A stretch of DNA of 64,000 bases from Escherichia phage ECO07P1: sequence record OP172784; one strand, written 5' to 3'. Positions within the stretch are counted from its first letter, which is position 1; each line of letters opens with the position of its first letter. The translations under genes were made by a program, and so were the position numbers. Positions 2 through 9,253 of the stretch are shown in pieces. The notes beneath the pieces were generated by a model. That model saw only the letters and a program-made list of their open reading frames with translations. It did not search any database and had not been told where the DNA came from.

Positions 2-1144
2 TCTATTGCAGGTGGTGTAGCTGACCTTGGATATCATCATGGTGAAAACTCTGCGCAAGACGCGGGGGCTTTGATGGCTAATACTTGGAATAATAACTTT
101 CCTTTGTTAGATGGTCAAGGAAACTTTGGTTCTCGTACTGTTCAAAAAGCAGCGGCAAGTCGTTATATTTTTGCTCGTGTAAGTAAAAATTTCTATAACG
201 TATATAAAGATACTGAATATGCTCCGGTACATCAAGATAAAGAACACATTCCGCCTGCTTTTTATTTGCCTATTATTCCTACCGTTCTTCTTAATGGTGT
301 TTCCGGTATTGCAACTGGTTATGCAACTTACATTCTTCCTCATAGCGTTTCTTCTGTCAAGAAAGCTGTATTACAAGCTCTTCAAGGAAAGAAAGTAACT
401 AAACCGAAGGTAGAATTCCCAGAATTTCGTGGTGAAGTCGTTGAAATTGACGGTCAATATGAAATTCGTGGAACGTACAAGTTTACTTCACGAACTCAAA
501 TGAATATCACTGAGATTCCGTATAAGTATGATCGTGAAACTTATGTGAGTAAAATCTTAGACCCGCTTGAAGATAAAGGCTTCATTACGTGGGATGATGC
601 TTGTGGTGAGCATGGTTTTGGATTTAAAATTAAATTCCGCAAAGAATACTCTTTGAGCGATAACGAAGAAGAACGCCATGCAAAAATCATGAAAGACTTC
701 GGGTTGATTGAGCGTCGTTCCCAGAATATTACCGTTATTAATGAGAAAGGAAAACTACAAGTTTACGATAACGTAGTTGATTTAATTAAAGACTTCGTTG
801 AAGTTCGTAAAACTTATGTCCAAAAACGAATTGATAACAAAATCAAAGAAACTGAATCAGCATTTCGTTTAGCCTTTGCCAAGGCGCATTTCATTAAGAA
901 AGTAATTTCAGGTGAAATTGTTGTACAAGATAAAACTCGCAAAGAACTGACCGAAGAACTTTCTAAAATTGATATGTATTCTTCTTATGTTGATAAACTA
1001 GTTGGAATGAACATTTTTCATATGACTTCCGACGAAGCAAAGAAACTTGCTGAAGAAGCTAAAGCCAAAAAAGAAGAAAACGAATATTGGAAAACTACTG
1101 ATGTAGTTACAGAATACACCAAAGATTTAGAGGAAATCAAATGA
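2..1144 (+). CDS. 52: DNA topoisomerase II medium subunit gp52, 5'-partial (runs off window edge)
   Basis: Reading frame open from pos 2, in frame with track ORF 71..1144; product recognised as T4 gp52; followed by motA as in T4. Confidence 0.85.
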   Translation, partial: SIAGGVADLGYHHGENSAQDAGALMANTWNNNFPLLDGQGNFGSRTVQKAAASRYIFARVSKNFYNVYKDTEYAPVHQDKEHIPPAFYLPIIPTVLLNGVSGIATGYATYILPHSVSSVKKAVLQALQGKKVTKPKVEFPEFRGEVVEIDGQYEIRGTYKFTSRTQMNITEIPYKYDRETYVSKILDPLEDKGFITWDDACGEHGFGFKIKFRKEYSLSDNEEERHAKIMKDFGLIERRSQNITVINEKGKLQVYDNVVDLIKDFVEVRKTYVQKRIDNKIKETESAFRLAFAKAHFIKKVISGEIVVQDKTRKELTEELSKIDMYSSYVDKLVGMNIFHMTSDEAKKLAEEAKAKKEENEYWKTTDVVTEYTKDLEEIK

Positions 1145-1290
1145 GTCCATTCATAGGTATTACAAGCGCTGCATTAGTATCCGGTGGCATTTTACTGGCG
1201 GGTTTAGGTGTTGTTCCTGCCGTAGCAGGAGGTCTTCTTGCGTTCGGAATTCAACGTGTTATCATGACAGTTATCACAGTCATGCAGTAA
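1141..1290 (+). CDS. 49-aa hydrophobic Gly/Ala-rich membrane peptide (motA.1-like position)
   Basis: ATG at 1141 overlaps gene 52 stop (ATGA); stop TAA 1288-1290; sequence MSPFIGITSAALVSGGILLAGLGVVPAVAGGLLAFGIQRVIMTVITVMQ; not in ORF track (<60 aa). Confidence 0.4.
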   Translation: MSPFIGITSAALVSGGILLAGLGVVPAVAGGLLAFGIQRVIMTVITVMQ

Positions 1291-1295
1291 TTTTA

Positions 1296-1322
1296 GGGAG
1301 AGCCGAGGCTCTCCCTTTTTTA
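1296..1322 (+). terminator. intrinsic terminator after gene 52 / small peptide ORF
   Basis: GC stem gggagagcc...ggctctccc followed by T-run. Confidence 0.7.
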
Positions 1323-1346
1323 TTTCAAAAATTTTTTCACAAAATG

Positions 1347-1376
1347 GTTTACAACCAAAGCATACTGTGGTACTAT
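1347..1376 (+). promoter_or_regulatory. early promoter for motA with AT-rich UP element upstream
   Basis: GTTTAC (1347-1352), 18-nt spacer, TG-extended -10 gtggTACTAT; upstream tttatttcaaaaattttttcacaaaa. Confidence 0.65.
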
Positions 1377-1417
1377 ACAACTATCAACTGCTGATACAGA
1401 ATTACGGAGATTAGAAA

Positions 1418-2053
1418 ATGTCTAAAGTAACTTACATCATCAAAGCTTCTAACGATGTTCTGAATGAAAAAACTGCTGCGATTTTAATTACCATTGCTAA
1501 GAAAGATTTCATTACAGCTGCAGAAGTTCGTGAGGTGCATCCAGATTTAGGTAACGCAGTAGTTAACAGTAATATTGGGGTATTGATTAAAAAAGGCCTG
1601 GTGGAGAAATCTGGCGATGGATTAATCATTACAGGTGAAGCTCAGGATATTATTTCAAATGCAGCAACTTTATATGCACAGGAAAACGCTCCTGAACTGC
1701 TGAAAAAACGAGCAACTCGTAAAGCTCGTGAGATTACTTCCGATATGGAAGAAGATAAAGACTTCATGTTAAAACTTTTAGATGAAAATGGATTTGTTCT
1801 TAAAAAGGTTGAAACTTACCGCAGTAACTATCTTGCTATTTTAGAAAAACGCACTCACGGAATTCGTAATTTTGAAATTAACAACAATGGAAATATGCGA
1901 ATTTTTGGATACAAAATGATGGAACATCATATTCAGAAATTTACTGATATCGGAATGTCATGCAAAATCGCTAAAAATGGTAATGTGTATCTTGACATTA
2001 AACGCTCGGCAGAAAACATTGAAGCAGTAATCACCGTAGCATCTGAACTGTGA
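1418..2053 (+). CDS. motA: MotA middle-transcription activator
   Basis: 211-aa ORF recognised as T4 MotA; SD ggaga upstream; early promoter upstream. Confidence 0.9.
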   Translation: MSKVTYIIKASNDVLNEKTAAILITIAKKDFITAAEVREVHPDLGNAVVNSNIGVLIKKGLVEKSGDGLIITGEAQDIISNAATLYAQENAPELLKKRATRKAREITSDMEEDKDFMLKLLDENGFVLKKVETYRSNYLAILEKRTHGIRNFEINNNGNMRIFGYKMMEHHIQKFTDIGMSCKIAKNGNVYLDIKRSAENIEAVITVASEL

Positions 2054-2063
2054 GGAATAAATA

Positions 2064-2393
2064 ATGAACAAGTTAGAAATTGTTAATGAACTTCGTCGTT
2101 GTGCAGAACCCACTCAAGAGGGGTGGGATATCTGGTACCATGGAGCTTATCTTGGAACTATTGTAAAGATTAAGACTGGTAAATACATGATTATTCGTGA
2201 AAGTAAAGATGCTCCAGTAGGTATTCGCAATAATTTCATGGCAGCTATAAGTTCCTTTACGGATGCAGCTTACGAAATTTACCTTGATGATTATAAAGAA
2301 TTCCAGGAATCTCAACCAGTTATTCGCTCAATTGGTGTTAACAAAGCTCAACAGAAAACTTTGTGGCAACGTATTAAAGGATGGTTTAAATGA
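2064..2393 (+). CDS. hypothetical early protein (T4 arn.4 position)
   Basis: Track ORF, ATG start with SD gagga; tightly packed after motA. Confidence 0.5.
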
Positions 2394-2851
2394 AAACTTT
2401 TAAAGAACGTTTAGCTCTGTTAGATAAAGCTTTGTCACGTGAGACTCCAGAAAGTCTGGCTGCTAAATTAGCTTCTTACAGCGGTGAATATACAGAAGAA
2501 GATATTTTAAAAGAAGTTCCTGAAATCTGTTGGCAGACCGCGTATTGGGACGAAAATCAAAAATATCAACGAAGAATTGTTTGCGCAGCCAACCGTTTTA
2601 AATTAAAAGATGGACGAACTCTTATTATTCCGGGTGCTCGTCATTATTCTAAAGATATGGCAGAAGTTTTAGATGTAGTTAAATCTCAATTAGTTACTCA
2701 GCAAGTTTGTGATGATGACCAAGGGTTTATTGACCAATATAGTAATTATTGGACACGTGAAGAAGCAATGATTATTGCAACTTACGCTGGACAAGTACGT
2801 ATTGAACGTGGTGGTAGTGAAAAAGAACTTTACTCTGAGGACCTTTACTAA
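2390..2851 (+). CDS. hypothetical early protein (T4 arn.3 position)
   Basis: Track ORF; ATGA overlap with upstream ORF. Confidence 0.5.
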
Positions 2852-3147
2852 TGAATATTAAAAAGTTTCAAATTGATGGAATTATGAATCAAATCCAGGC
2901 ATTGGAATATGCCAATAAAATGATGTCAACCAAATGGGGAATTTATGCCAATGAACCGGCATTTCAGTTCTGTAATATGGAATTCGCTAAAAAGCTCGTA
3001 GGAAAAGATTATGTATGTCCATTTAGTTCTCCAGTAAATGGAATGTTAAAACCTGCTTTACGCGATCTTTATATTGTGATGAACGAAGAGATGATAAAAG
3101 AGCTAAAACGTCAACTGAAGGTGATTCAATTTGGCCAGGGAAATTAA
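2851..3147 (+). CDS. hypothetical early protein (T4 arn.2 position)
   Basis: Track ORF; start overlaps upstream stop. Confidence 0.5.
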   Translation: MNIKKFQIDGIMNQIQALEYANKMMSTKWGIYANEPAFQFCNMEFAKKLVGKDYVCPFSSPVNGMLKPALRDLYIVMNEEMIKELKRQLKVIQFGQGN

Positions 3148-3349
3148 TTCAAAATCCGATTATTTTAATTCTCTCAATGATAAAGATAAAAATCTAATAC
3201 GGCATTTTATCGTTGAGATGGGATATACTGACACACGTGATTTAAGAGAACATATATTTGAATGTGGTGTAGCTAAAAAGTTTTCATTCACATGCAAATG
3301 TTTAAGAGAGGTAATTCAACACTATGAACAATTTAGTCGCAAAACATAA
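3131..3349 (+). CDS. hypothetical small protein, start uncertain (track start is TTG; first in-frame ATG at 3218)
   Basis: Track ORF 3131..3349; TTG at 3131, in-frame ATG at 3218. Confidence 0.3.
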   Translation: MAREINSKSDYFNSLNDKDKNLIRHFIVEMGYTDTRDLREHIFECGVAKKFSFTCKCLREVIQHYEQFSRKT

Positions 3350-3432
3350 TTTTAATAAAGCTTCTGTCCATAAGGATAAGAAGAAAGCGTTTAAAGAATC
3401 TAATCGCAAACAGAAACATAAGGGGAAGGTCT

Positions 3433-3711
3433 ATGATTATTGATTCTCAATCTGTGGTTCAATATACAATCAAAATTGATATTCTAGAAAAGCTATATAA
3501 GTTTCTACCAAATTTATACCACTCAATTGTTAATGAATTAGTTGAAGAACTACATCTTGAGAATAATGATTTCTTGGTTGGAACTTATAAAGATAACTTA
3601 AAGGCGGGATATTTTTACGTAATTCCAGCTCCAGGAAAAAGTATTGATGATGTATTAAAAACTATAATGTTTTATGTCCATGATTACGAAATTGAAGATT
3701 ATTTCGAATGA
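3433..3711 (+). CDS. arn: Arn anti-restriction protein
   Basis: 92-aa ORF, size and position match T4 arn immediately upstream of asiA; SD aagggg. Confidence 0.75.
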   Translation: MIIDSQSVVQYTIKIDILEKLYKFLPNLYHSIVNELVEELHLENNDFLVGTYKDNLKAGYFYVIPAPGKSIDDVLKTIMFYVHDYEIEDYFE

Positions 3712-3860
3712 GTCATAATCTTGAAAAGGTAATCGAGCATAATGTAGCTCAGGAACGTGAGTCGTTCAAGGAATTCGTAGAAAAAATTTTTGAAGAAAAT
3801 AACACAGACCAGTTTACAAATAAAGCGTCTGATGATATTATAATAAAGTCAACTAATTGA
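3708..3860 (+). CDS. possible 50-aa ORF translationally coupled to arn
   Basis: ATG 3708 overlaps arn stop (ATGA); stop TGA 3858-3860; contains the asiA early promoter; not in track. Confidence 0.3.
   Translation: MSHNLEKVIEHNVAQERESFKEFVEKIFEENNTDQFTNKASDDIIIKSTN
3812..3841 (+). promoter_or_regulatory. early promoter for asiA
   Basis: GTTTAC (3812-3817), spacer, TGaTATTAT -10. Confidence 0.6.
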
Positions 3861-3872
3861 GTGGTATAGTTA

Positions 3873-4145
3873 ATGAATAAAAACATTGATACAGTTCGTG
3901 AAATTATTACTGTTGCGTCTATTTTGATTAAATTTTCCAGAGAAGATATTGTTGAGAATCGTGCTAATTTTATTGCATTTCTGAATGAGATTGGAGTAAC
4001 GCATGAAGGTAGAAAGTTAAATCAGAATTCATTCCGTAAAATTGTTTCTGAATTAACCCAAGAAGATAAGAAAACCCTCATCGACGAATTCAACGAGGGT
4101 TTTGAGAGTGTATATCGATATCTAGAGATGTATACGAACAAATAA
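3873..4145 (+). CDS. asiA: AsiA anti-sigma-70 factor
   Basis: 90-aa ORF beginning MNKNIDTVREII, recognised as T4 AsiA. Confidence 0.9.
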   Translation: MNKNIDTVREIITVASILIKFSREDIVENRANFIAFLNEIGVTHEGRKLNQNSFRKIVSELTQEDKKTLIDEFNEGFESVYRYLEMYTNK

Positions 4146-4802
4146 TTATTTAGCCCTTCCTAATATTCTGGCCGCCTGAGAACATATTGATTCAAGGCGG
4201 TCATTACTTATATGATCATTTCTATACCAGTACATGGTTATTGTTCCAGCATAGATGTTATCCAAATTAAAATATGGACAACTGTACATGTAATTTATTT
4301 CGGGAGTAGGCTTTTTAGTTGGTAAAAAAGCAAATTTTGAGTTGGAATAATAATGACGTCCATTTAAATGAACTGTATATTCATCCATAGTTTTATCAAC
4401 AGGATATCCTCCAAGTGATTTTTCACTTATTGTTGAAGGTAATTTTCCTTCATATGCTATAATATCAACAAAATAGTTTAAGTTTTTAGGGCGGAAAGAA
4501 TACACCGCACTAAAGTCTGCCTCAGATGATATGTGAACTATCTGGAGTTGTTCCAGGGCGACAGATTCAAAGCGTGCGTTTCTTTCCTTTTCAATAATTT
4601 CACGGTATGTTTCATACTTTGATTGCTTATAGTACTCAAAGAAACTATCTCCCCTATACCAAACAATCGCCATCATAAATAAAAGAATTACGACAGCTAC
4701 TCGGGAAGCAAGAACCTTCCCGGTAGCATTATCTTTGAACAAGCGATCTAGAACACCCAACAGAATATCAGAGGGCGAAAATGATATTCTAGGTGCTGCC
4801 AT
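4146..4802 (-). CDS. t: holin T
   Basis: 218-aa ORF with N-terminal TM segment and large periplasmic domain, recognised as T4 T; late promoter and SD upstream. Confidence 0.9.
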   Translation of the reverse strand: MAAPRISFSPSDILLGVLDRLFKDNATGKVLASRVAVVILLFMMAIVWYRGDSFFEYYKQSKYETYREIIEKERNARFESVALEQLQIVHISSEADFSAVYSFRPKNLNYFVDIIAYEGKLPSTISEKSLGGYPVDKTMDEYTVHLNGRHYYSNSKFAFLPTKKPTPEINYMYSCPYFNLDNIYAGTITMYWYRNDHISNDRLESICSQAARILGRAK

Positions 4803-4820: not shown

Positions 4821-4828
4821 TATTTATA
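4821..4828 (-). promoter_or_regulatory. late promoter for t (TATAAATA on - strand)
   Basis: + strand tatttata overlapping gene 38 stop, about 20 nt upstream of t start. Confidence 0.7.
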
Positions 4829-5375
4829 CGTAATTCCTGAATAAACGCTTATACCAAGGCTTCCATTCTTTTTCAGGCCATTTAGGAAATTCACCACCTA
4901 AATGCTCATGCTTTTCTAAAAGAGCAAAGAACCGTTTAAGGTTTTGATAATAGAATTTTTCCTTTTTATTTGCAACTGAAGCTTCGATCATATTATTCAA
5001 TACTTGGAATTCTTTATATAATTCTTCAATTTTTCTATTACGAATTAAAACGCGTTTATATGTTTCGTCTTCTTTCCAACCATCATCAGTCCATATATCA
5101 AATTCGCCGGGTTCATCAAAAGTTATACCAACCGGGCTTCCTATGTCAGTTATTAAGATTTCTTCTTTATTAAAAGTCCAAGCCCGTTTACCGCGATGGT
5201 CTTCTTCATAAATCCAATCCTGAATACGTTCATCAAATACAACTGCGTATCCTTCTTTAGGTTCTAAAGGTTTTTTAATTGTTGAATGAGCAGGAAGACC
5301 GAGGCCTTTAACCGGTTTGTAATTTTCTTCTTTGTAAAATTCTTTAGTGTCAAAATAATAATGATATATTTTCAT
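4824..5375 (-). CDS. 38: gp38 tail fibre assembly chaperone (T4 type, 183 aa)
   Basis: 183-aa ORF immediately downstream of gene 37; recognised as T4-type gp38. Confidence 0.85.
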   Translation of the reverse strand: MKIYHYYFDTKEFYKEENYKPVKGLGLPAHSTIKKPLEPKEGYAVVFDERIQDWIYEEDHRGKRAWTFNKEEILITDIGSPVGITFDEPGEFDIWTDDGWKEDETYKRVLIRNRKIEELYKEFQVLNNMIEASVANKKEKFYYQNLKRFFALLEKHEHLGGEFPKWPEKEWKPWYKRLFRNYV

Positions 5376-5382
5376 ATTTAGA

Positions 5383-5398
5383 AGGGGCCGAAGCCCCT
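5383..5398 (-). other. UUCG-tetraloop hairpin between genes 37 and 38
   Basis: + strand aggggc-cgaa-gcccct; on - strand RNA a GGGGC-UUCG-GCCCC stem-loop just upstream of gene 38 SD. Confidence 0.6.
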
Positions 5399-5402
5399 CT
5401 CC

Positions 5403-8400
5403 TTATGCTAAACGAACGATATAGTTAAAAGCAATGTTTTTAACCGTGTTTTCTGTATTACCTGTACTATTTACAGTGATAGTATGACCATGCGAGCCAA
5501 TTGCTACCGTGTGGGTATGAGCACCGATACCTACAGTATGGGTATGAGCACCAATACCTACTGTGTGAGCATGGTTACCCGTAGCGCTAGTAGTTCCTGA
5601 CCAACTATGGGTGTGGGCACCGTCTGAAGAAGTTTTGGCCATATTCGACGCTGCAGTAGCACCGCTCACGGTTCCAGTGATTTTAGCGTTGCCGTTTGGA
5701 CCTGCACTATTGTATCCATCATAGAATATGCTAGTGGGTATGCCGCCTTGCATCTGAGGGCCTGAACGAGCGTGTTGGTGCGCACCAGCGGAACTAGTAT
5801 TACCACTCACTGTATGGCTATGGTTGCCGGTGGTATTACTGGTCTTAGTACCATAATCAAAGCTTGAAGTCGTTTTGCTACCGTAATCAAAACTTGATGT
5901 GGTTTTAGTACCTAAGTCAGTACTTGAAGCCGATGCACTATGGCTATGAGCCTTAACACCATCTTCTTCTGCGCTCAAAACATCACGACCACTTGGTTTA
6001 CCCTTGATAGTTTGCCCGCGCATATCAGGCAGAGAGCCGGAAGGATACACCGCAGCTAACTTAGGATACAAGCCAACATCAAATGTTTGACCTTCCATTA
6101 TGGCATAACCTTCAGGAGGTGTATCAGTAGGCCAAGGAATCGGAGCTCCAATAGGATAACTTGAAACAATATCAGTTTTAAGTGATTCAATCGTACTGTT
6201 TAAGTTAGCAAAATTACCAGAACCACCAGTAATATTACCATCAGTACCAAGAGTAGCAGCACCGGCAATAATTTTACCAGGTGTGCGGAAGTCACCGGTA
6301 CGACGGAATTCCCAACTTATATCGGTTCCGGTAGTACTAGTACCTTGGTGATAATGGACACGGAAGTCTCCTTGGGCAATTAAGGTACCAATAGAATAAG
6401 TACTATCACCCTTTACATACCGTTGTTTAACAATAGGAATGTATTCAGAAGTAGCAGTACGCTCTATATTCATATAAATTGGAGCTCTTACGTTTACATC
6501 GTTCTGAGATGCAAAGGAACCACAACCCGTTGGGCGAACTCCATCAGAAGCCTCAATATCTATATAAGCATTTTGTCCTAATTGCATTCTAAAGTTGGCA
6601 TTAATGCGAGAGTTACTATTTATAGTAGTTAAAGCATTATTTTGATCTACTATAAAAGAATCTCTTCCTAACCCAACCATGCCATCGTTTAATCCTATTC
6701 TCACAGGTCTCAAAGAGCTGTGAATGTCTCCGCTTTCGCCTTCATTTTGATTGGTTGGAATAATATAGAAGTTGGCTTCTGAACGACGGAAAATAGCGCC
6801 ATATTCGGAATTCCAAATTCTTAATGCATTAGCAGTTCCACCAATTTTTACTTGGCCGGTAATAGAAGAACCACCTTGGACAAACAAACCGTTAGACATA
6901 GTAACATTGCCACCGAAAGAACCTGTACCGGAGGCACTTATATTTCCAAGGCCTATGATATGACCTGTTTCGACAGTTCCGTTAAATTTAAAGTTAACCG
7001 GACCTACCGTTTGACCTGATGCAGGATTAGTACGTTGAGCGTAAAAATAATAACCTTGCCCATCAGCTACTTCAAAAACGGTTTCACGACTACGATCACC
7101 AGATGCGTTAAATGAATTACCCCACACTTTAACTGTAACAGGGCTTTTGTTTTGACCTGAGCGTGTGCCACTATTCCAGTATATGCTTCTAGTACCATCT
7201 ACAGCCGTCGGAGCATTAAATTGGAATCCCTGATTATCAGGTCCATCAATAATTATACCTTTATTAAGACGAAAAGCTAATGTAGAATCAATATTACCTG
7301 TTGCAGCGTTAAAGCTAATACTGTTAGCACCGGTTACTAGTTTAAGAATACCCGGGTTAACTTCCATGCCTTCTTGAGTATTAATATTAGTTTTGCCTTT
7401 ACCACGGAAATAGTGGTTCATTTTACCGCCTGAGTTATAGCCAATATGTGTCTGGCCGTCTCCACCAGTGTTTCCATCAGCTTGTGTTTGAACCGATAAA
7501 AAGGCAACGTTGGTTCCAGGCATAATCCATGTTGTGCCTTGATCTTCTGAGCGTCCAAATAATGCTTTACGTGTACTACGGAAACTGTCAGGAGTAATAG
7601 AAGCAACAGAATATCCACCGCCAACTAGATCAAATACACCGGTTTTTTTGTATGACAAGCCAGTTACAGTGTCACCGAGAACAAGATACTTATCGCCCAT
7701 TACACCGACGTTACCATAATCACTAGACGGGAAATCTGCAGTGAATGTACCTAATGCAAGGCTATTACGCCCAGCCATTCGGCCGTCGTTACGAATACCA
7801 TATTGTTTAGATGATGGAGTATTACCCGTCCACCAAGACATTTCATCTGCTTGGCCAGTCTGAGCTGTACAGATTTCATGCCACATGGTTCCGGCAGCTT
7901 TAGCGCGAACTTTACGAAGATAGTTTATACCGTTTGTTTCACCGGTTCCAGGATAAACATAGTTAACCAAAGATTGAGAATCATATTGCCCAAAGGCTTT
8001 GGCATCGTGAATAACAGTATCAACCGCAATGCGTTTAGTTACTAACGAATCTGATGCTAAAATACGGTTAGCTTGAAATTCACCGCCGTTTATAGAACGG
8101 AAATAGAATTCGCTATTAATAATGCTTCCGGTTCCTTGTCTAACTCTAAGACGTATTTCACCGTCAGTTGTAGTTTGAGGACGAGCATATATAACGCCTC
8201 GTTCAATGCCATCGGCATTTTCAAACCAAAGATGGGCATTGGAAGTATCATTTGAGGCTCTTGTATAAAATGAACCTTGTGTAGATCTGAAAACTTTTGC
8301 AGTTATGCCTTCAGTAGAACCAATAGGTCCATTTACGGTCATTCCACCAGTTTGTACATAATCGCCGTTTAATTTCAAAAGACCATTGATAGTCACATTT

Positions 8401-8579
8401 CCATCAACTTGCCCGCCTTTAGCAAAACCCAGATCAATGATATTTCCTAAATCGTCTTTAGTAAAAATTGTTCTATCTTTTAAGTTTATAGCCAATTCAC
8501 CTTCGGCTAATACTGAAGCAGCAGGACGAGCACCTGCGGTTTTGCTTCTTTTAAATTGTATTTGTTTTAAAGTAGCCAT
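5403..8579 (-). CDS. 37: gp37 long tail fibre distal subunit (1058 aa) with His-x-His repeats near C-terminus
   Basis: Large ORF in 34-35-36-37-38 cluster; C-terminal repeated GxHxHTV motifs. Confidence 0.9.
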
Positions 8580-8587
8580 AAGTCCTC

Positions 8588-9253
8588 TTAATAATAGCCG
8601 AAATCTTGAACAGAATCCTTAATTACGATTTGGTCAAATCGTGGAACATGTGAAGGTTGAGATGCGGGATTCTGTGAGAAAAAGTTTGGCGCAGTTAAGT
8701 TACCTGTCATAGTGTCGCCAGATCGTAACACTCTAGAGTTCGCATTTGCCGTAACAGTATTTATTGCTCCATCGACGTAGTCCTTTCTAGTAAGATCACG
8801 AGCTTCTATAGGAGCAGCTGCGTTACTTTTTACTTGACCTACTGCTATCACAATGCCTTTTGTACTAATATCACCATTACGTGCATTAATTACAACAGTT
8901 CGGTCTGCTGAACCTTGTGATGATTTAAAACCAATACCATTCCACGAAACAATATCGATATTTGTTACAGCAAAAGTAGCATTATCACCATTACCTGGAT
9001 AAATACCGCATGGGTTTGTGTTGTTTACAGCATATGGGACTTGAACACCGCCGTTAAATGTTACCTTTGATGCATAAGTACCACCATTAGCTTTAGAAAC
9101 GAAATCGTTATCTGCAGCTTGTGGTTTATTATATTCTGAATATATTTTAAATGATTTATAGAGTACATCGTCACCGGCTGGATTCAATGGAAAATTTCCT
9201 TGATGCCAAATAACAGAGCCTCCAGTTGTTGAACCTACTTTTAAATCAGCCAT
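8588..9253 (-). CDS. 36: gp36 long tail fibre hinge subunit
   Basis: 221-aa ORF between 35 and 37; late promoter upstream. Confidence 0.85.

Follow-up and report, generated by a model that had tools for sequence, protein, structure and literature searches.

The closest described structure is the needle of the T4 tail fibre protein gp37 (PDB 2XGF; Bartual et al. 2010), which shares with the protein studied here a common domain order of collar, ascending stem, tip, descending stem and C-terminus. The T4 stem comprises residues 882-931 and 960-1009 according to one report (PMC9603124), and another describes seven irons in the needle and gives inter-chain contacts between G921 and F970 and between H929 and G964 (PMC6957217). 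A variable number of His-x-His motifs has been reported explicitly for this protein: Korf et al. 2019 (PMC6563267) give 7-9 of them in tequatrovirus gp37, and phage MM02 (PMC6563267) carries the same 8-site module that we describe below. Magaziner and Salmond 2022 (PMC9659904) describe a T4/TuIa/TuIb/Ur-lambda Stf family in which conserved flanks surround a receptor-specific insert of 30-70 aa and a chaperone of the gp38/Tfa type is encoded downstream.

For phage TuIb, gene 37 (X55191; receptor-recognizing protein 37; Montag, Hashemolhosseini and Henning 1990) encodes a protein that is 90.9% identical in amino acids to ours over the last 265 residues. The layout of its His-x-His motifs is identical, with spacings of 42,14,55,14,9,9,9 residues, and the three repeat units that we call nonapeptide units 1-3 are identical in nucleotides. 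The two proteins differ at 10 of 46 tip residues (counted by eye) and in the first FDYG unit, which has GTK in TuIb and GSK in ours. The repeats are already known, in that earlier publications cover the His-x-His boxes, their binding of iron, gp38 as a chaperone and the range of 7-9 boxes, and the exact layout is already in GenBank through the TuIb record, which is attributed to the 1990 paper.

Gene 37 and the anatomy of its needle

We analysed a window of 64,000 nucleotides from Escherichia phage ECO07P1 (OP172784). Gene 37 (5403..8579) encodes the long tail fibre distal subunit of 1058 aa, identified from the ORF list, translation and homology; like every feature described below, it lies on the minus strand. 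The protein is 100% identical to 'long-tail fiber protein p37' of ECO07P3 and 77.5% identical to T4 gp37, and it has Pfam matches to Collar and Gp34_trimer. When the last 265 aa were compared with the PDB by phmmer, they matched 2xgf_A (T4 gp37) with E=1.2e-82 (query 1-265 to chain 15-242). This match confirms the original prediction that we are looking at the gene 37 3' end of a T4-type phage, with His-x-His motifs as in the iron-coordinating T4 needle.

Gene 38 (4824..5375) encodes a 183-aa tail-fibre assembly chaperone like that of T4, and unlike the adhesin-type gp38 of T2/S16. In a direct alignment 175 of 183 residues (96%) are identical to T4 gp38, and tail fiber assembly is the gp38 annotation in both the T4 and the ECO07P3 records; the protein had no match to any Pfam model. 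The gene order 36-37-38-t is that of T4, gp36 and the holin t have Pfam matches, and the T4 and ECO07P3 annotations concur. Because gp38 is a T4-type chaperone, gp37 is the adhesin, and on this point too the prediction was right. With conserved flanks, a receptor-specific insert and a gp38/Tfa-type chaperone downstream, the locus resembles the T4/TuIa/TuIb/Ur-lambda Stf family. A promoter and terminator scan of 5250-5700 gave nothing beyond shuffles, and opposite-strand ORFs in the repeat region were all 39 aa or shorter, with no sign of an overlapping gene.

Directly before the needle is a phage tail collar domain (6006..6149, aa 811-858; PF07484, E=1.1e-10), the knob that gives rise to it. 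The ascending stem arm (5772..5951, aa 877-936, 60 aa), placed by alignment to T4 882-931, has His-x-His motifs at 5940-5948, 5814-5822 and 5772-5780. We delimited the tip, or head, domain (5634..5771, aa 937-982) by its low identity to T4 932-959 and its 18 extra residues; it is 46 aa long versus 28 aa in T4, the two sequences are largely unrelated, and this hypervariable part is presumably the one that binds the receptor. The descending stem arm (5457..5633, aa 983-1041, 59 aa), placed by alignment to T4 960-1009, has His-x-His motifs at 5607-5615, 5565-5573, 5538-5546, 5511-5519 and 5484-5492. It is followed by a conserved 17-residue C-terminal segment (5406..5456), identical to T4 1010-1026, which returns to the collar and is kept in all T4/lambda-type relatives. 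The His-x-His total is 8, with 3 in the ascending and 5 in the descending arm, at the spacing given above for TuIb. By homology to the T4 needle, these motifs would bind iron in a trimer, with each ion held octahedrally by six histidines.

The two repeat arrays and their register in T4

The descending array (5481..5561), found with TRF, a repeat search and translation, consists of three in-frame 27-bp units where T4 has two. Unit 1 (5535-5561, aa 1007-1015) and unit 2 (5508-5534, aa 1016-1024) both encode VGIGAHTHT, and unit 3 (5481-5507, aa 1025-1033) encodes VAIGSHGHT. TRF reports a period of 27 over 5497-5567, with 2.6 copies, 81% matches and a score of 100, in agreement with the translation, and the predicted tandem nonapeptide units at the gene 37 3' end are real. 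So are the GNHAHT, GAHTHS and GNHSHT motifs said to precede them, to which AHQHA and AHSHS have to be added to reach the eight His-x-His. Other parts of the original prediction need correction. Unit bounds of 5505-5531 and 5532-5558 are 3 nt off the codon register of this minus-strand gene. Nor are the DNA repeats perfect: between units 1 and 2, 24 of 27 nt agree, with three third-position differences, all synonymous, and no identical stretch longer than 14 nt, and unit 3 agrees with unit 1 at 19 of 27 nt and with unit 2 at 16 of 27 nt. The array had also been placed at the receptor-binding tip, while homology to T4 indicates that it would form the collar-proximal base of the descending arm; the tip proper is at 5634-5771. 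Each nonapeptide spans one His-x-His to the next and ends in GxHxH-T, and the duplicated segment in our protein is bounded by GxHxH motifs. In the GenBank record of phage mogra, the nonapeptide array is annotated as a repeat_region.

The ascending arm has an array of its own (5844..5933; TRF, repeat search and alignment gap), which was absent from the original prediction. It consists of three 30-bp decapeptide-type units, with one fewer in T4: a degenerate unit at 5904-5933 and two units of the FDYG type at 5874-5903 and 5844-5873. TRF reports a period of 30 over 5849-5929 with 2.7 copies, and the two FDYG units (TTSSFDYG[ST]K, 5844-5903) are identical at 23 of 30 nt.

T4 gp37 and our gp37 have the same His-x-His motifs and their last 44 residues are identical. 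Besides the bigger tip, the stem differs from that of T4 by exactly two indels, +10 aa in the ascending arm and +9 aa in the descending arm. Our protein has 8 His-x-His motifs versus 7 in T4, with one more decapeptide and one more nonapeptide, so that decapeptide-type units and nine-residue spacings number 3 and 3 here versus 2 and 2 in T4. We set the two arms against each other in a linear register that we derived from the published domain limits and the two contacts given above, rather than from coordinates. Both contacts give i+j of ~1891-1893, and in this register the T4 decapeptide 898-907 faces VGIGAHTHT at 984-992. These are exactly the two units that are duplicated in our gp37, and the extra decapeptide and the extra nonapeptide would probably face each other in the needle.

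The anatomy, the homology to T4, the covariation of the arms and the constant copy number among close relatives are direct observations, and alongside them we consider it quite likely that the repeats are paired structural rungs of the needle, with tips swapped on a fixed scaffold. The 27-bp repeats would then be rungs of a trimeric, iron-stapled gp37 needle. Each descending nonapeptide (V-G/A-I-G-x-H-x-H-T) would supply one His-x-His and, with the other two chains, one octahedral metal site, and would pair across the needle with one ascending decapeptide (xxSSFDYGxK). An extra pair would make 8 metal sites instead of 7, the eighth presumably binding metal like the others, and a stem longer by ~9-10 residues per arm, or roughly 3 nm by our estimate. 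The repeats would be old, diverged duplications that arrived as matched pairs. Recombination within the conserved His-box flanks would graft variable tips (here a TuIb/JS09-like one of 46 aa) onto this repeat scaffold of fixed length, and receptor specificity would reside in the tip, not in repeat number.

Covariation between the arms

For the comparison we had 182 distinct needles, taken from proteins, IMG/VR, metagenomes and GenBank phages. The IMG/VR search with the gp37 shaft gave one locus, and T4-like loci were sampled from GenBank phages. We scored the arms by their full His-x-His spacing vectors, setting the length of the first ascending gap against the number of 9-spacings; gap length was used because a loose decapeptide motif also picks up the degenerate TDLG unit.

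Of these needles, which are phylogenetically non-independent, 180 have matching decapeptide and nonapeptide numbers. A first ascending gap of 31 or 32 goes with two 9-spacings (n=53), one of 42 with three (n=115) and one of 52 with four (n=1). In fibres of the FelixO1 type, a gap of 34 goes with two (n=8), a gap of 54 with four (n=2), and three decapeptides with three (n=1). The 14-residue modules are always paired across the arms, with none, one or two on each. The only exceptions among the 182 are two clean in-array deletions, L083 (IMG metagenome 3300030021) and L262 (isolate, IMG genome 2851003417), which are 2 of the 117 needles with a 42-residue ascending gap. Either the coupling is not absolute, or these genes are defective or mis-assembled.

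Since unit numbers change together in nearly all needles, slippage in one arm would leave the arms out of register, and we infer that there is selection against one-arm changes. Part of the covariation could instead reflect descent from a few ancient scaffolds and not selection that is still at work. The existence of rare one-arm deletions and of perfect re-duplications (both discussed below) suggests that the arrays are still recombinationally active. We lean slightly towards the view that needle length in T4, lambda, P2 and FelixO1 fibres is quantised in matched rungs, with arrays that go on recombining and one-arm variants that are purged as out of register. The available parts of Magaziner and Salmond 2022 (PMC9659904) and Korf et al. 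2019 (PMC6563267) do not state a paired-number rule; the rule comes from our own counts.

Copy number, tip exchange and alternative explanations

In GenBank, the query is covered to 80% or more by 116 records. We saw no net indel in the single-piece full-length matches listed, which come from Tequatrovirus, Mosigvirus, Dhakavirus and Gaprivervirus and reach down to ~84% nucleotide identity. What looked like a +117-nt variant in O157 typing phage 13 is a stretch of N within an incomplete genome sequence. Copy number is identical in every cultured close relative inspected, so the expectation that unit number varies between relatives holds for T4 (2 units) against our phage (3 units) and does not hold within that closer circle. 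The three synonymous differences between units 1 and 2 are also found in TuIb and two of them in S1P5QW, and because they are shared, the duplication is older than the divergence of these sequences from ours.

Tips behave differently from scaffolds. Our tip is identical to that of TuIb at 36 of 46 residues and to that of JS09 at 45 of 46 (counted by eye). One scaffold bears many different tips, which form 29 clusters among the relatives, and near-identical tips are found on 7- and 8-site scaffolds (SHBML-50-1 and sutha; L075/L078 and L089). Because the same tip can sit on both, needle length does not set tip identity.

It had been proposed that the 27-bp array is a contingency locus prone to slippage, in which a change of length shifts receptor specificity. 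In-array deletions with repeat-flanked junctions do exist: L083 lacks precisely one unit, and the unit left is a hybrid of units 1 and 2. Compared with L255, to which it is otherwise nearly identical, L262 is exactly two units (54 bp) short, and its junction falls within a repeated GCNCATGCNCAYTCTGT. T4's single VGIG unit also reads as a hybrid of units 1 and 2. In phage 04086, two units are identical at 27 of 27 nt and form a perfect 54-bp repeat, and the decapeptide units of VR25 are identical at 29 of 30 nt, which suggests recent conversion or re-duplication. The deletions and the 04086 repeat lend the proposal some weak support, but the units in our phage are imperfect rather than near-perfect, and the single-piece full-length matches listed from the 116 GenBank records show no copy-number polymorphism. 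Just 2 of the 117 distinct needles with a 42-residue ascending gap deviate, and the 180 of 182 coupling also speaks against the proposal, as a change in one arm would shift it by 9-10 residues against the other. The array belongs to the collar end of the needle, remote from the receptor-binding tip, and the occurrence of one tip on both scaffold lengths is not what retargeting by repeat number would give. A concerted-evolution test was marginal for units 1 and 2 (7.19 differences within genomes versus 7.61 between genomes, permutation p ~0.05) and showed no effect for units 2 and 3, and we drew no evidence from it. T4 host-range mutants studied by Tetart and colleagues reportedly carry duplications in the gp37 adhesin; these are said to involve its variable region, which GxHxH boxes enclose, rather than the VGIG array next to the collar. 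By its title, Tetart et al. 1996 (J Mol Biol 258:726) is a precedent for the general idea that duplication of His-box-bounded gp37 segments alters host range; the papers citing it, as far as their available text goes, mostly give point mutations (G938V, R954S/A955T; PMC9603124). Taken together, we regard slippage that retargets the phage as unlikely.

A role of the His-box DNA in recombination deserves more weight, although we hold it only tentatively: the boxes, repeats included, may mainly be homology for tip-cassette swaps between phages and prophages, with repeat number incidental. L083 is a mosaic: its 5' part best resembles 04086, the stretch immediately ahead of the array TuIb, and what follows the array MM02 (60/60, 38/38). 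The same needle module occurs in four Tevenvirinae genera, in lambda Stf and in P2-like and FelixO1-like fibres, and tips are shuffled among scaffolds. However, homology for recombination leaves the match between decapeptide and nonapeptide numbers in 180 of 182 needles unexplained, and metal binding accounts for the amino acid conservation of His-x-His, so the DNA homology may be a by-product. This reading is compatible with the structural explanation. We give practically no credence to the idea that the periodicity arose by chance or from low complexity and has no structural meaning. The array is short (2.6 copies), and nothing else speaks for chance; the motif is conserved in protein sequence across the fibres of T4-like phages, lambda, P2-like and FelixO1-like phages and falls on the metal-binding sites of the solved structure, and homology to 2XGF already refutes it.

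If repeats are indeed paired rungs, the rule may be useful, as a needle can apparently be made longer or shorter only by altering both arms together. Rung number would then be a ruler of fibre-tip length that can be read from sequence, and paired insertion or deletion would be a design rule for engineering fibres, of relevance to those who engineer the tips of T4-like or lambda Stf-like fibres to reprogram host range. The two natural one-arm deletion variants, L083 and L262, are ready test cases for the rule. With 8 x 6 = 48 ions, the predicted iron load per virion would exceed the 42 of T4.

The gene 37 locus and its repeat arrays

Over the region, the window is a 100% match to Escherichia phage ECO07P3 (OP172786.1, a Tequatrovirus of E. 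fergusonii), and we use that name for the phage and its gp37. On the minus strand we found gp36 (8588-9253), a 1058-aa gene 37 ORF with a 27-bp array at its 3' end (5403-8579), a 183-aa ORF for gp38 (4824-5375) and the holin t (4146-4802), in the 36-37-38-t order of the T4 record. The 1058-aa ORF aligns to T4 gp37 with 77.5% identity overall. The original prediction was right that gp38 is of the chaperone type: 175 of 183 residues are identical to T4 gp38, which the T4 record annotates as a tail fibre assembly protein.

The 27-nt spacer from the gp37 stop to the gp38 start holds a GC-rich hairpin with a UUCG tetraloop (AGGGGC-UUCG-GCCCCU, 5383-5398, minus strand), with an MFE of -15.6 kcal/mol and z = -2.4 against shuffles. 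The equivalent site in phage MM02 is annotated as a putative terminator; a simple terminator scan did not call the hairpin because it has no T run. Near the 5' end of gp38 there is a 15-bp tandem repeat at 5316-5344 (1.9 copies, 85% matches), which encodes KEFYKEENYK and is probably trivial.

Tandem Repeats Finder (TRF) reported the 27-bp period at 5497-5567 (2.6 copies, 81% matches). Translated in frame on the minus strand, the nonapeptide units are VGIGAHTHT (5535-5561), VGIGAHTHT (5508-5534) and VAIGSHGHT (5481-5507), exactly the peptides predicted; GNHAHT, GAHTHS and GNHSHT also occur, as had been noted. The tandem array is therefore confirmed, while the boundaries proposed for it were one codon out of register and came with no strand. 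The repeats had also been called perfect, and they are not: units 1 and 2 agree at 24 of 27 nt, with three differences, all at synonymous third positions, and a longest identical run of 14 nt, and unit 3 agrees with units 1 and 2 at 19 and 16 of 27 nt. A second array, with a period of 30 at 5849-5929 (TRF), had been left unmentioned; its in-frame decapeptide-type units lie at 5904-5933, 5874-5903 and 5844-5873 (minus strand). The observation is real and was described imprecisely.

Position in the needle and comparison with T4

The last 265 residues match the T4 gp37 needle structure (2xgf_A) over their whole length (E=1.2e-82). In T4 the collar is 811-881 plus 1010-1026, the stem 882-931 plus 960-1009, and the tip 932-959 (PMC9603124). 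With these boundaries carried over by alignment, the ascending stem of ECO07P3 spans aa 877-936 (60 aa), its tip 937-982 (46 aa versus 28 in T4) and its descending stem 983-1041 (59 aa), and the 17 C-terminal residues that follow are identical to T4. The nonapeptide array is the final part of the descending arm and so adjoins the collar; the receptor-binding tip, where it had been placed, is at the opposite end of the needle.

Both alignments to T4 have exactly two stem indels: +10 aa in the ascending arm, which is one more xxSSFDYGxK decapeptide (FDYG), and +9 aa in the descending arm, which is one more VGIGAHTHT. The ECO07P3 tip is larger than its T4 counterpart, to which its sequence is largely unrelated. 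Against seven His-x-His motifs in T4 (first His at 883, 915, 929, 966, 980, 989 and 998), ECO07P3 has eight. The T4 inter-chain contacts G921-F970 and H929-G964 (PMC6957217), taken with the stem ends 882/1009 and 931/960, give an antiparallel register of i+j ~1891-1893, under which the T4 decapeptide 898-907 faces VGIGAHTHT 984-992. On this register, the units of which ECO07P3 has an extra copy would be each other's partners across the needle. From this linear register, rather than from coordinates, we infer that the extra decapeptide and nonapeptide would form one added rung with one added predicted metal site.

Both the fold and this structural repeat within it are already known. GenBank X55191 is described as bacteriophage TuIb gene 37, and citing papers credit the TuIb gene 37 sequence to Montag et al. 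1990 (e.g. PMC9659904). It is 90.9% identical to ECO07P3 over these 265 residues, with an identical layout and nucleotide-identical nonapeptide units. Two papers describe tequatrovirus gp37 C-termini that have seven to nine His-x-His repeats and resemble 2XGF (Korf et al. 2019, PMC6563267), and a T4/TuIa/TuIb/Ur-lambda family in which conserved flanks enclose a specificity insert of 30-70 aa (Magaziner and Salmond 2022, PMC9659904). MM02, a phage of Korf et al. 2019, carries the ECO07P3-type needle module, and the phage mogra record annotates the 27-bp array as a repeat_region. Only one point, that decapeptides and nonapeptides match in number, did we not find already stated in the gp37 literature we examined.

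Matching of the two arms across relatives

We collected needles from a protein search, IMG/VR, metagenomes, GenBank phages and the window itself; once duplicates were removed, 182 distinct sequences remained in which the C-terminal end could be recognised. In the T4/lambda type, a first ascending His-to-His gap of 31-32 goes with two 9-residue His-x-His steps (9-spacings; 53 sequences), a gap of 42 with three (115) and a gap of 52 with four (1). In the FelixO1 type, a gap of 34 goes with two (8 sequences), a gap of 54 with four (2) and three decapeptides with three (1). Nearer the tip, 14-residue His-box modules number zero, one or two, on both arms together.

The relatives form 29 tip clusters, at least two of which mix both scaffold lengths (7- or 8-site stems) with the pairing kept: SHBML-50-1/sutha, and L075/L078 with L089. 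The 45-aa tips of Shigella phage SHBML-50-1 (L087) and Escherichia phage sutha (L088) differ at two residues, while one phage has an 8-site and the other a 7-site scaffold, with both arms altered together. We regard the matching as strong descriptive evidence; it carries no formal probability because the sequences are not phylogenetically independent.

Felixounavirus-type fibres (L094, L188, L217, L218, L224, L226, L249 and others) have a different C-terminal end, ..QAFxxEQPSFVxYVWQRTA. Their stems are built from the same units, FDYG decapeptides with His-x-His nonapeptides, matching 2/2, 3/3 and 4/4. Four E. coli database proteins with a needle-domain C-terminus (P0034, P0036, P0075, P0104) go under the names terminase large subunit or tape measure protein, with the corresponding Pfam domains at the N-terminus; their probable origin is in fused or mis-called ORFs of draft assemblies.

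Copy number, rare deletions and slippage

The original prediction held that slippage in the repeats could shift receptor specificity. Tetart et al. 1996 is a precedent, its title linking altered host range to duplications in this region of gp37. Two natural needles also speak for it, L083 and L262, which are the one-arm exceptions to the pairing and amount to 2 of the 117 distinct needles with a 42-residue gap. L083 (IMGVR_UViG_3300030021_000020, a metagenome contig) has intact gp36, gp37 (842-4072), gp38 and t ORFs and an ascending gap of 42 (two FDYG decapeptides), yet only two 9-spacings. Its lone VGIG unit is a unit 1/unit 2 hybrid, and the sequence is a mosaic, best matched by 04086-like sequence, then TuIb-like before the array and MM02-like after it; it could be the product expected of an out-of-register crossover, or an assembly artefact. 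L262 (IMG/VR), whose identifier suggests an isolate genome, differs from the near-identical L255 by a clean in-frame 54-bp deletion of two nonapeptide units, with its junction within a repeated GCNCATGCNCAYTCTGT and a repeated AHAHSV-coding sequence at its flanks. From these two, array-mediated deletions do occur.

Against slippage as a route to new specificity stand the imperfect repeats, the distance of the array from the tip, the near-universal matching of the arms and a constant copy number in cultured relatives. Megablast with a 798-nt query returned 209 GenBank phage records, 116 covering at least 80% of it. Among the 40 best rows and a 60-row spread over the lower ranks, all single-piece full-length matches had equal record and query spans, down to ~84% identity, in Tequatrovirus, Mosigvirus, Dhakavirus and Gaprivervirus. 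Two-piece matches differed in length through the tip (-54, -21, +3 nt) or a T4-type scaffold (-111 nt = -30 -27 -54). An apparent +117-nt insertion in E. coli O157 typing phage 13 (L182, KP869111.1) was a run of N; this partial genome has 206 N in the stretch examined, interrupting gp37, which is unannotated there because the N runs break the gene.

TuIb has all three of the synonymous differences that separate unit 1 from unit 2, and S1P5QW has two of them, so the duplication predates divergence from both. In Escherichia phage 04086 (L098, OR842557.1) two units are 27/27 identical, a perfect 54-bp tandem repeat, and in VR25 (L100) two decapeptide units are identical at 29/30 nt. These repeats suggest that units inside the arrays are occasionally converted or duplicated anew, in these phages recently; a general test of concerted evolution was marginal only. 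The sibling phage ECO07P2 (OP172785.1; H143) shares its E. fergusonii isolation strain with this phage, yet the 3' end of its gp37 measures 744 nt against 798 nt, the 54-nt difference lying in the tip region, so two phages of one host bear different tips.
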